Of a stretch of 27,742 nucleotides of DNA, positions 3,545 to 23,362 are shown one piece after another; positions within the stretch are counted from its first letter, which is position 1, and each line of letters begins with the position of its first letter. Source of the DNA: a virus; the UHGV virus genome UHGV-0038079; one strand, written 5' to 3'. The notes below the pieces were generated by a model, which was not told where the DNA came from, made no database searches, and was given only the letters and a program-made list of their open reading frames with translations. A program made the translations under genes and the position numbers.

Positions 3545-4459
3545 TCAGTAGTTATGTACTGAAGGAGGTAATTCTTTATTCTTAAGTCTCATCCATGCGG
3601 AAAGATTCGTTGGTCCGTCTGGCTCATTGATATCAACATCTCGTGTGTGATTGATTAAAACGTCTCTCGCCATTCCGATAACATACGAGAATTCATGACC
3701 GTAGTCGTAGCATCTGCCGGAATAGTTCGATTGAATTTGTTTTAATGCCGGATACAGTTCGCGGAATAATGCCTGTGAGCGGTTGGCATAATCCCATAAC
3801 CATACAAGGCTGTTTGCTTCTTTTGCAGAAAACTCGTTTACTTTCTTCTCTTGTTTGCCAATGAACTCACCTTCAAGTGGAACTCGAGCTGCAAGTGACA
3901 GTGCTTCTGTAAACTGCTCCTCACTGATTTCTTTGTACGAACAGCCAAAATGAGATTTCAGTGACGACCACATGGTGATCATCGCCTTCGCCTGTTTTTC
4001 TTTTGGCAGAGACTGACCGCGACTCATGACGAGTTGTTTAATAGCTTCCTGCTGTTCAGTGGTGATTTTACCAGGCAACGCCTTTTTAGCTTTCGGTGTA
4101 TTTCCGTAAGACCCCGTTTTACGAATGGATGGCAAAACTTCAGCTGTTACCCATTTGCGGAATTTGTGCGGGACTGAACCTTTATTGACGGCATCACGGC
4201 AGCGCAGAACCAATGTATACATACCTGATTCGCTCACAATGCTTAAATTCTGCTCACCACCAAGGGTGTAACTTAAAGTTACTCCCTTCTCATCGTCATC
4301 AAGTGCAGTAAGCGCCTTGCGTGAGTTAGTCAGGGCTAAAGCATCACAAACATCTTTTGCTACAAACCACGGCTCGCCGCACTTGTTGATGACGCGGATT
4401 TCACTGTCGCCGAATTTGAAGATGGTGAAATCGTTTTGTGCCTTTGCTATACTTTTCAT
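3545..4459 (-). CDS. ant: Antirepressor Ant (P22 immI Ant-like), 304 aa
   Basis: Antirepressor-like N-terminal domain ([33 protein letters not shown]); lies directly downstream of an Arc-like gene, as in P22 immI. Confidence 0.75.
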
Positions 4460-4532
4460 GTCAATATTTCCCGATCAGATTTGTTGATGTAGAAGCCTCG
4501 CCAGTTCCCGCTGTCGGGGCTTCGTTATTTTT
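4460..4532 (+). ncRNA. Predicted sar-like antisense RNA covering the ant start region and arc-ant spacer
   Basis: Plus-strand extended -10 TGcTATACT (4445..4453) just inside the ant 5' end; plus-strand hairpin GAAGCC...GGCTTC (4493..4523) followed by GTTATTTTT; same topology as P22 sar. Confidence 0.4.
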
Positions 4533-4692
4533 AGAGAGCATTCCGCATTTTCTCCCGGTACTTCAACCACCAAGCTAATCCTTGAACCAACACTGAGTTT
4601 TCTGACATTCCCTCTTCCTCTGCAATGCGCTTAACTTCTTCCTTAAAGCGGTACGGGTAGCGAAGAGTTGTCTTTACTTCATTCTTTTCCAT
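4531..4692 (-). CDS. arc: Arc-like ribbon-helix-helix repressor, 53 aa (below the ORF-track size cutoff)
   Basis: Hand translation MEKNEVKTTLRYPYRFKEEVKRIAEEEGMSENSVLVQGLAWWLKYREKMRNAL; same length and RHH pattern as P22 Arc (LRWPREV...ENGRSVNSEIYQRV). Confidence 0.7.
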   Translation of the reverse strand: MEKNEVKTTLRYPYRFKEEVKRIAEEEGMSENSVLVQGLAWWLKYREKMRNAL

Positions 4693-4799
4693 GCTGTCTC
4701 CTTATTTCACAATGAAGGCAAATTGCCTTTAGAGTCAATTTACCATGATTGCACATGAAGTCAAGTTGCCTCTACAATGATTTTTATTTGAGGTGAGTT
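4693..4799. promoter_or_regulatory. Divergent promoter/operator region (Pant-like leftward, Pmnt-like rightward)
   Basis: Plus-strand -35 TTGCAC (4749..4754), 18-bp spacer, -10 TACAAT (4773..4778), SD GAGGTGAG before mnt ATG 4800; minus-strand -35 TTGACT; perfect 15-bp palindrome AAGGCAAATTGCCTT at 4715..4729. Confidence 0.5.
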
Positions 4800-5123
4800 A
4801 TGTCAGAAAAATTTCCCAGCCAAATGCAAGACAAGTTCACCGTGAGGTTTCCTGACGGATTGCGCGATGCTATAGCTGAACGAGCTAAACGTAATGGCAG
4901 ATCAATGAACTCAGAGATTGTGCAGATACTGGAAGATGCCTTGAATGCAGAAAATACTCTTGGGGAAATAGCAGATAAAATTAACAGCGTCTCGGTTCCG
5001 CTAAATGTTGATGCGCTAGTTCAACTTCAAGCCCAGGTTATCGCCATGCAAAAAGAAATACAGGAAAAGTTCAGAGAGCAGAACGAAAAGTTGAGAGAAC
5101 TGCTAAACAAAAAACCCACCTGA
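4800..5123 (+). CDS. mnt: Mnt-like ribbon-helix-helix repressor, 107 aa
   Basis: N-terminus FTVRFPDGLRDAIAERAKRNGRSMNSEIVQILEDAL matches the Arc/Mnt fold motif (P22 Mnt ...ANGRSMNSELLQIVQDAL); divergent from arc. Confidence 0.75.
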   Translation: MSEKFPSQMQDKFTVRFPDGLRDAIAERAKRNGRSMNSEIVQILEDALNAENTLGEIADKINSVSVPLNVDALVQLQAQVIAMQKEIQEKFREQNEKLRELLNKKPT

Positions 5124-5147: not shown

Positions 5148-5483
5148 TCATTTAACCTTTCGGCAATCGTACGTCCAAAATTCCCGAGGCTCGTCCATAT
5201 TTTTGCGGATAACTTCAACGTTGAGGATCGCTTTTTTGTTTCGTTTGATGTAGTCCATACCTAACCAACGTCCAGTATTAGGATCAGGTAACATCCATTG
5301 CATCATGACGTTATCGAAATCGTCTTTTTGTTTCAAAAAGGTCATTTTTTGTGTTTCTGGCTTTTGACCATTGATGTGCATGAGGCCATCATTACCAGCA
5401 TCAAAGCGGAATGGTCCGCACTGCGTTGCCGCCGAAACGGTTAACGGCAGGGCCAAGAATAAACAAAAAAATACTTTTTTCAC
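5148..5483 (-). CDS. Small secreted protein of unknown function, 111 aa (GTG start)
   Basis: N-terminal signal peptide MKKVFFCLFLALPLTVSA-ATQ; SD GGAG 9 nt upstream of GTG; start overlaps the stop of the upstream baseplate gene; own terminator. Confidence 0.6.
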   Translation of the reverse strand: MKKVFFCLFLALPLTVSAATQCGPFRFDAGNDGLMHINGQKPETQKMTFLKQKDDFDNVMMQWMLPDPNTGRWLGMDYIKRNKKAILNVEVIRKNMDEPREFWTYDCRKVK

Positions 5484-23206: not shown

Positions 23207-23282
23207 TGGTGCTGGTTAACGGACTTGACCCGCTACCAATTCGCTTACAAGGCGACCGCTCTACCATTGGAGCTAAACCAGC
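23207..23282 (-). tRNA. tRNA, anticodon UGU (Thr-like), 76 nt with encoded CCA
   Basis: Hand-folded cloverleaf: 7-bp acceptor stem GCTGGTT/AACCAGC, D arm GCTC-CAATGGTA-GAGC, anticodon loop CTTGTAA, discriminator A + CCA; T loop GTCAAGT has G at position 54 (non-canonical). Confidence 0.6.
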
Positions 23283-23287
23283 ATGTT

Positions 23288-23362
23288 TGGCGGGACAGCG
23301 TGGACTCGAACCACGATAAGAAGGTTAACAGCCTTCCGTAATGACCTTTATACGACTGACCC
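23288..23362 (-). tRNA. tRNA, anticodon GUU (Asn-like), 75 nt with encoded CCA
   Basis: Hand-folded cloverleaf: canonical T arm CGTGG-TTCGAGT-CCACG, anticodon arm GAAGG-CTGTTAA-CCTTC, acceptor GGGTCAG/CTGTCCC with one T:T mismatch, discriminator G + CCA. Confidence 0.6.

Follow-up and report, generated by a model that had tools for sequence, protein, structure and literature searches.

A 27,742-nucleotide (nt) stretch of the virus genome UHGV-0038079, referred to here as the window, very probably encodes an orthologue of sar, the small antisense RNA of phage P22, on the plus strand from position 4460 to about 4532 and within a predicted complete immI module. In P22, sar is an antisense RNA of 68–69 nt that pairs with the messenger RNA (mRNA) of ant and prevents Ant synthesis, working alongside Mnt and Arc in immI (PMC2629481, PMC11016777, PMC13397905, PMC3134472). 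The primary papers on it are Liao et al. 1987 and Wu et al. 1987 (Genes Dev 1:197, 1:204), and a further one is Schaefer and McClure 1997 (RNA 3:141), all cited in PMC2629481. A first-pass annotation, made from the sequence and a list of its open reading frames (ORFs), had likened an element opposite the ant translation start to sar. The likeness stands, as alignment and annotation indicate homology to the experimentally defined Psar and sar of P22 in position, structure and sequence.

We propose that a sigma-70 promoter, with a weak −35 and the extended −10 TGcTATACT, lies in the first codons of ant and would fire away from that gene, the start at G4460 being placed after P22. Termination at a hairpin and U tract that abut the arc stop codon would yield a transcript of about 70 nt whose predicted fold has two hairpins, the 5′ loop presenting the anti-Shine-Dalgarno sequence UUUCCC (4467–4472). 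This RNA would be perfectly complementary to the arc–ant intercistronic leader and would pair with the GGGAAA region on Pant or read-through transcripts. Such pairing, as established for P22 and presumed for the window, would block ribosome loading and keep antirepressor synthesis low. By analogy with the "ant moron" of P22-like phages (PMC2629481), one role may be to keep ant silent when it is transcribed by late read-through.

Predicted promoter and structure of the antisense RNA

The predicted promoter Psar sits in the 5′ end of ant, points away from it and would start transcription beside its ATG, which is the complement of 4457–4459. The extended −10 that the first-pass annotation had placed just inside ant is there in the sequence and overlaps ant codons 2–5, and a promoter scan matched GTGAAA-17-TATACT with an upstream TG at 4425–4453 (+). 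Homologous loci supplied 55 distinct 50-nt upstream contexts for comparison. A TAnnnT hexamer lies exactly at −12 to −7, counted from the base after CAT, in 51/55 of them (as TATACT, TACAAT, TAAACT, TACACT, TATAAT, TAAAAT, TATAGT, TAAATT or TAAGCT), and the remaining four have the same motif with the model start shifted by one base (L063, L061), two (L091) or three (L057). TG is found at −15/−14 in 40 of the 55 contexts, and the −35 is variable and weak across homologous loci, as in P22. The Ant N-termini encoded across these contexts are diverse (MKSIAK.., MNSIAI.., MNIVAK.., MTSLAI.., MKSVSK.., MNIVHN.. and others); codon 4 is always NTA (GTA, TTA or the rare ATA), which yields T−12 and A−11, and codon 3 always starts with A, which yields T−7. 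Unrelated Ant N-termini share the −10, and the predicted Psar therefore constrains the first ant codons.

G4460 is the probable transcription start, as it corresponds to the start annotated in P22 and lies at the canonical distance of 7 nt from the −10. The predicted RNA would then probably be complementary to the ant Shine-Dalgarno sequence and to the leader up to position −1, with the AUG itself outside. The first-pass annotation had claimed full complementarity to the ant Shine-Dalgarno sequence and start codon and to the arc 3′ end. The first part holds, but the start codon is probably uncovered, as the predicted G4460 follows CAT, and at most the last 1–2 nt of the arc stop codon (complement of 4531–4533) would be included.

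The segment 4458–4532 folds with −27.5 kcal/mol, compared with −13.7 ± 2.7 kcal/mol for shuffled sequences (z = −5.18; 0/200 shuffles as good), into a small 5′ hairpin and a long terminator hairpin, so that the terminator expected by the first-pass annotation is recovered within a two-hairpin fold. This 14-pair hairpin, GAAGCCTCG-C-CAGT/TCCC/GCTG-T-CGGGGCTTC, begins at 4492, one base before the start previously given for it (4493), and ends at 4523; the tail GTTATTTTT follows at 4524–4532 as noted before, and all earlier coordinates prove correct to within one base. A GC-rich stem-loop followed on the transcribed strand by the U tract GUUAUUUUU is what an intrinsic terminator consists of. The terminator scan, which splits the long stem, reported terminator-like sub-stems at 4503–4521. 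The minus strand, as read from the sequence, has no T run after the hairpin and offers no evidence that the hairpin terminates arc transcription, and the 71-nt arc–ant spacer has no promoter belonging to ant. As modelled, the RNA would have the make-up of sar, namely some 68–70 nt with a 5′ hairpin, a 3′ terminator and complementarity to the ant ribosome-binding site.

Comparison with P22 sar and with Rfam

The correspondence with P22 extends to details of arrangement. P22 sar likewise lies antisense between ant and arc, with mnt, arc and ant as neighbours, and its Psar (TTGCTATACT, with a 17-bp spacer to a weak GTG..A −35) is likewise located inside ant codons 2–5; the P22 −35, GTGTTA, is at the same distance as GTGAAA in the window. 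In both, three bases and then the CAT of ant follow the −10, and the start is the next base. Both RNAs have two hairpins with the anti-Shine-Dalgarno sequence in the 5′ loop, terminator arms GAAGCC...GGGGCTTC and a 3′ end reaching 2 nt into the arc stop codon. An alignment of the window, P22 and the Edwardsiella phage GF-2 has TTGCTATA.T.TTCATGT and the terminator arms GAAGCC / GGGGCTT as its invariant parts, whereas the DNA deeper in ant is unrelated.

The two elements differ, on the other hand, in the ant Shine-Dalgarno sequence (GGAG in P22, GGGAAA in the window), in the inner terminator stem and wholly in the 5′ hairpin (GUCAAUA/UGUUGAU in the window, GUUGGU/ACUGAC in P22). The U tract is stronger in the window (GUUAUUUUU) than in P22 (AACUUUACG). 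The window is of the SEN34 / GF-2 / vB_EcoM-611R5 myovirus type, whereas P22-like phages are podoviruses, and the window Ant, unlike that of P22, has a Bro-N N-terminal domain.

Because the 5′ hairpin and the inner terminator stem differ from those of P22, the window scores low with Rfam. The sar family RF00262 is nevertheless the top match (28.5 bits, E = 0.001, model 1–68 of 68, window 4461–4527). At gathering threshold, Rfam found two transfer RNAs (tRNAs) and no sar over the window, since 28.5 bits is less than the cut-off of 43 bits and a default run misses the element, which comes up in E-value mode only. The cut-off is operational, and the model behind it derives from P22-like sequences. 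The second-best match, ctRNA_pGA1 (RF00236; 23.2 bits against a cut-off of 45), was rejected as due to terminator shape alone: this plasmid copy-number RNA resembles the element in having a small hairpin, a GC-rich terminator hairpin and a U tract. Matches to snoR110, mir-7398, RMST_3 and BcKCsr2 were far under their cut-offs and reflect a generic hairpin shape.

Among positionally equivalent elements, the RF00262 scores form a continuum from 97.8 bits to undetectable, leading from P22 through CUS-3, L067 and L054 to the window type. They are 97.8 bits for P22, 95.6 for epsilon34, 84.6 for CUS-3, 83.9 for phiv205-1, 67.6 for L067, 50.0 for L054, 38.6 for L037, 38.4 for L026, 37.6 for L045, 34.0 for PhiR5_1, 32.1 for GF-2, 30.2 for Edno5, 28.5 for the window and 27.5 for L033, and L009, L015, L024, L059, L091 and L098 gave no sar match. 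Eight of these 20 sampled elements score 27–39 bits, six are undetected, and 43 bits is passed only by the P22-like end. RF00262 is much narrower than the real sar family.

Conservation, covariation and strand preference

Loci were gathered independently of the RNA, with four Arc proteins as queries, which yielded 160 loci: 159 from IMG/VR and one from a Citrobacter genome, the single locus found when genome contigs were scanned with the window Arc. A covariance model, R1, was built from 16 hand-picked sequences (alignment A2). It matched at full length in 158/160 loci, always antisense to arc and between arc and the next gene, with scores of 29.6–83 bits; the best opposite-strand score was 22.8 bits. 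The two loci without such a match are L029, which is truncated, and L160. The window, itself part of R1, scores 80.4 bits at 4460–4534.

The 158 matches collapse to 79 distinct sequences, aligned as A4 by fitting to the model structure. In A4, 88.1% of cells are paired, compared with 78.8% after shuffling and 27–51% when slid; the covariation score is 0.354, against 0.188 for shuffled alignments (0/500 as high) and at most 0.099 for slid ones, and cells changed on both sides number 148 versus 37 in shuffled alignments. The terminator helix is 96.7% paired over the 79 sequences, with both-side changes in 6/12 pairs. In A2, aligned by MAFFT alone, the 5′ hairpin is out of register, and RNAalifold accordingly gave the terminator and nothing else.

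Folded individually at full length, 76/79 sequences take the plain two-hairpin shape. The exceptions are GF-2 (L001) and L042, with extra pairs around the terminator, and L048, which is without the 5′ hairpin. The 5′ segment folded alone forms a hairpin in 78/79, from nucleotide 1 in 75, and does so with 20 different helix sequences (for example GUCAAUA/UGUUGAU, GUUGGU/ACUGAC, GUCGA/UCGAU, GUCGU/ACGAU, UCAGUU/AACUGG and GUCUA/UGGAC). Strand matters as well: the whole element has a mean of −29.6 kcal/mol on the sar strand versus −19.5 kcal/mol on the ant strand and is better on the former in 79/79, and for the 5′ part the means are −6.9 versus −2.9 kcal/mol (better in 78/79). G-U pairs, frequent in both helices, are A-C mismatches on the ant mRNA strand. 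This strand asymmetry, together with the G-U pairs, argues for selection on a plus-strand RNA and not on a purely cis-acting structure of the ant leader. As a whole, the comparison across loci goes far beyond what chance would give.

Weighing of alternative explanations

Several observations weigh against identifying the element as sar. The consensus scan found five promoter-like sites where 2.9 ± 1.3 were expected, which is not above chance, and is by itself uninformative because shuffled sequence yields about as many; the −35 of the window is weak, agreeing at 4 of 6 positions. The RF00262 score lies below the gathering cut-off, and the window 5′ hairpin alone, at −6.2 kcal/mol (z = −1.65), is barely better than shuffles. 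Many of the loci are related, so that locus counts are not independent events. The fitting of A4 to the model structure favours that structure, and its 5′ helix is just 66–73% paired because of register shifts; the individual folds were made for these two reasons.

A structured arc–ant intercistronic leader that acts purely in cis, for example as an RNase site or a translational-coupling element, with no antisense RNA, would account for some of the pairing. Helices of one strand are in part reproduced on the other, and the opposite strand still reaches a mean of −19.5 kcal/mol; Schaefer and McClure (1997) reportedly found P22 ant mRNA itself to be structured. We consider this explanation very unlikely, as the plus strand is the more stable in all 79 sequences, by a mean of 10 kcal/mol, and the frequent G-U pairs would become A-C mismatches on the ant strand. 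The U tract, moreover, follows the hairpin on the plus strand only, the extended −10 upstream on that strand is conserved at the correct spacing, and opposite-strand model scores do not exceed 22.8 bits. It is more improbable still that the hairpin and U tract merely terminate some other plus-strand transcript, or that the product is the 46-amino-acid (aa) ORF with a GTG start at 4438–4578 (+), which does appear in the ORF list and spans the element. There is no plausible upstream plus-strand gene, only short ORFs opposite ant. The distance from the ant start codon to the terminator stem varies by 1–3 nt (e.g. among the window, GF-2/L001 and L015), which would shift the frame of any plus-strand ORF through the element, and what is conserved is a promoter and helices with compensatory changes.

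The segment might instead be conserved mainly as a recombination joint, or be a decayed and silent remnant of sar, with no present regulatory role here, which we regard as unlikely. The CUS-3 record labels the equivalent stretch "bsq2; boundary sequence"; types of 5′ hairpin, terminator and ant N-terminus reassort among loci; and the window Ant is chimeric, with homology to P22 Ant resuming only in the C-terminal half. A pure joint, however, would conserve sequence, not pairing through compensatory changes, nor would it favour one strand, and the −10 retains the critical T−12, A−11 and T−7 through varied amino-acid contexts. In the window, the promoter is intact in sequence, the two hairpins are present, and the U tract is better than that of P22. 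Recombination at the arc–ant joint and sar function are compatible, and the element at 4460 to about 4532 remains best described as a predicted sar gene.

The immI module and its genomic context

The coordinates of the element and its neighbours are collected in Table 1; those of P22 follow the RefSeq annotation NC_002371 in the numbering of locus L002.

Table 1. Predicted sar element and immI genes of the window, with the annotated features of P22
Feature	Position	Strand	Basis or remark
Weak −35-like hexamer GTGAAA of predicted Psar	4425–4430	+	Promoter scan, 17-bp spacer
Extended −10 TGcTATACT (TGCTATACT)	4445–4453	+	Within ant codons 2–5 (AAA AGT ATA GCA); same as P22
Predicted sar-like antisense RNA, about 70–73 nt	4460–4532	+	Start G4460 placed after P22; 3′ end within U tract 4528–4532
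Predicted 5′ hairpin	4460–4488	+	Stem 4460–4466 with 4482–4488; minimum free energy structures
Anti-Shine-Dalgarno UUUCCC in 5′ hairpin loop	4467–4472	+	Predicted fold
Predicted terminator hairpin	4492–4523	+	9 + 4 pairs, one bulged pair position, loop UCCC
U-rich tail GUUAUUUUU (DNA GTTATTTTT)	4524–4532	+	Last two bases overlap arc stop codon
Predicted ant mRNA target	4457–4472	−	Shine-Dalgarno GGGAAA (complement of 4467–4472), spacer, AUG (complement of 4457–4459)
ant, antirepressor, 304 aa	3545–4459	−	ORF list and Pfam: Bro-N N-terminal domain, P22_AR_C C-terminal domain
arc-like ribbon-helix-helix repressor gene, 53 aa	4531–4692	−	Same strand as ant, upstream of ant
mnt-like repressor gene, 107 aa	4800–5123	+	Divergent from arc-ant
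P22 Psar	L002 1466–1494		
P22 sar RNA	L002 1501–1570		
P22 sar terminator	L002 1533–1570		
P22 arc	L002 1569–1730		
P22 ant (end)	L002 1500		

By its predicted genes, the region 3545–5123 is a complete immI module (mnt / arc-ant), and its order is that expected for sar, with the antisense element in the arc–ant junction and mnt divergent. The Arc-like protein scores 19.2 bits with Pfam Arc, slightly below the cut-off of 20.4, and is 27% identical to P22 Arc (alignment A3) and 98% identical to a GF-2 protein named Arc-like in GenBank. The mnt-like product carries a Pfam Arc domain (1.5e-18) and is 51% identical to P22 Mnt over 37 aa. The identity between window Ant and P22 Ant (62%) is confined to the C-terminal 190 aa, of which the last 100 are nearly identical. 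Relative to P22 Ant it is thus a chimera, with an N-terminal half that is Bro-N and unrelated to the N-terminus of P22 Ant; codons 1–5 are again common to the two because they carry Psar.

The window represents a prophage whose myovirus type is that of vB_EcoM-611R5 / SEN34 / GF-2 and whose early genes are lambdoid, and E. coli chromosomes contain close copies of it. The immI module is embedded in a minus-strand cluster of tail and baseplate genes, with terminator-like sites of the minus strand on either side (5132–5113 and 3527–3508, consensus scan). Between the mnt-like gene and the baseplate genes lies a 111-aa ORF (5148–5483, −), named hypothetical in RefSeq, with a hydrophobic signal-like N-terminus (MKKVFFCLFLALPLTVSAA..); it may be a moron cargo gene of the "ant moron". 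The gap between arc and mnt contains a direct repeat, ATGAAG(G/T)CAA(A/G)TTGCCT(T/C)TA.., at 4712–4734 and 4755–4777 with a 43-bp period. Each copy contains an imperfect palindrome (e.g. AAGGCAAATTGCCTT at 4715–4729), and the repeat overlaps divergent promoter-like sites, TTGACT-16-TAAATT (−, 4764–4737) and TGCACA-17-TACAAT (+, 4750–4778). These repeats and sites are candidate Arc/Mnt operators and candidates for Pant and Pmnt.

Mosaic structure of the sar element

Across the loci, 24 types of 5′ hairpin and 14 terminator types occur in 35 combinations, with two four-gamete cases. The 5′ hairpin type of the window is paired with three terminator types, that of P22 among them, and in the chimera L103 the window promoter and 5′ hairpin are joined to the P22 terminator. 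These patterns suggest recombination between the two predicted sar hairpins. Among L003–L160, examples of mosaic loci for comparison with window 4460–4532 are L103 (1511–1585), L070 (1326–1400) and L026 (1659–1733). In loci of the phiv205-1 type (L039 701–775; L103–L160), an extra small ORF stands between arc and ant (57 aa, L039 763–936), and the sar-like element lies 160–250 nt downstream of arc, abutting the extra ORF and not arc. From this spacing, sar stays with the ant 5′ end and not with arc.

A more speculative idea, which we hold to be rather doubtful, is that phages exchange the sar gene as a two-part specificity cassette, in which the 5′ hairpin moves together with the ant leader, the terminator hairpin follows the upstream gene, and the two recombine independently. 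Should sar act in trans between prophages that share a host cell, the hairpin types would delimit groups of cross-repression. A prophage might then silence the antirepressor of another, or escape such silencing. This would amount to an immunity layer at the RNA level that spans podo- and myovirus lineages and is mostly invisible to Rfam-based annotation.

Related elements and implications for annotation

Other small phage antisense RNAs pair at or near a ribosome-binding site, as predicted for the window sar. In phages P1 and P7, icd-ant is under the control of c4 RNA, which so holds an antirepressor in check; c4 arises by processing of a longer transcript and targets, in trans, sites within its own operon. 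The OOP RNA of lambda restrains a lysis–lysogeny regulator and overlaps the cII 3′ end. Neither is homologous to the window element, with which they have neither sequence nor position in common. OOP is listed in PMC5415839 and PMC3134472.

Close parallels are found in Gofduovirus. GF-2, of the same phage type as the window and with a near-identical arc (98%), has a sar-like element in the equivalent place (L001 2069–2142, 70.1 bits with R1), its 5′ hairpin being of yet another type than that of the window. According to PMC6372524, ImmI of the Edwardsiella phage Edno5, also of Gofduovirus, comprises Ant, Mnt and Arc; neither this paper nor the GenBank records of these immI regions list a sar RNA beside the three proteins. 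Taken as a sar gene, the window element is orthologous to a classic RNA from which it has diverged, and it belongs to a phage lineage for which just the three immI proteins had been recorded. Nothing about it is new in biological principle: it extends a mechanism of 1987 to more phages and illustrates the limits that a promoter lying within coding sequence sets on the first codons of unrelated antirepressors. The practical value lies in annotation: a model from the 79 variants (R1 / A4) could mark the regulator at any arc-ant (immI) module, including those of myovirus prophages of Escherichia, Citrobacter and Edwardsiella and of a Klebsiella phage. A stretch at least 80% identical to the window promoter plus RNA segment occurs in 456/5,426 complete E. 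coli genomes, and strains LWY24 (NZ_CP054556), KCJ3K291 and FDAARGOS_1288 match 4425–4535 with 100% identity.

Existing records give some examples of how such loci are annotated. In the Klebsiella phage ST101-KPC2phi6.1 (MK448231), a full sar-like element (L037 719–792, 71.2 bits with R1) falls within one long annotated hypothetical coding sequence (locus 1–1390), which is probably over-extended across the ant start and the upstream spacer. In E. coli LWY24 (NZ_CP054556), the single RefSeq locus examined in detail, the arc homologue (L161 1607–1768) is a "hypothetical protein"; the name "Arc family DNA-binding protein" is given to the mnt-like gene, and there is no RNA feature at the sar position. 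Elsewhere in the window, two neighbouring tRNA genes, tRNA-Thr(UGU) and tRNA-Asn(GUU), lie at 23207–23362 (−).

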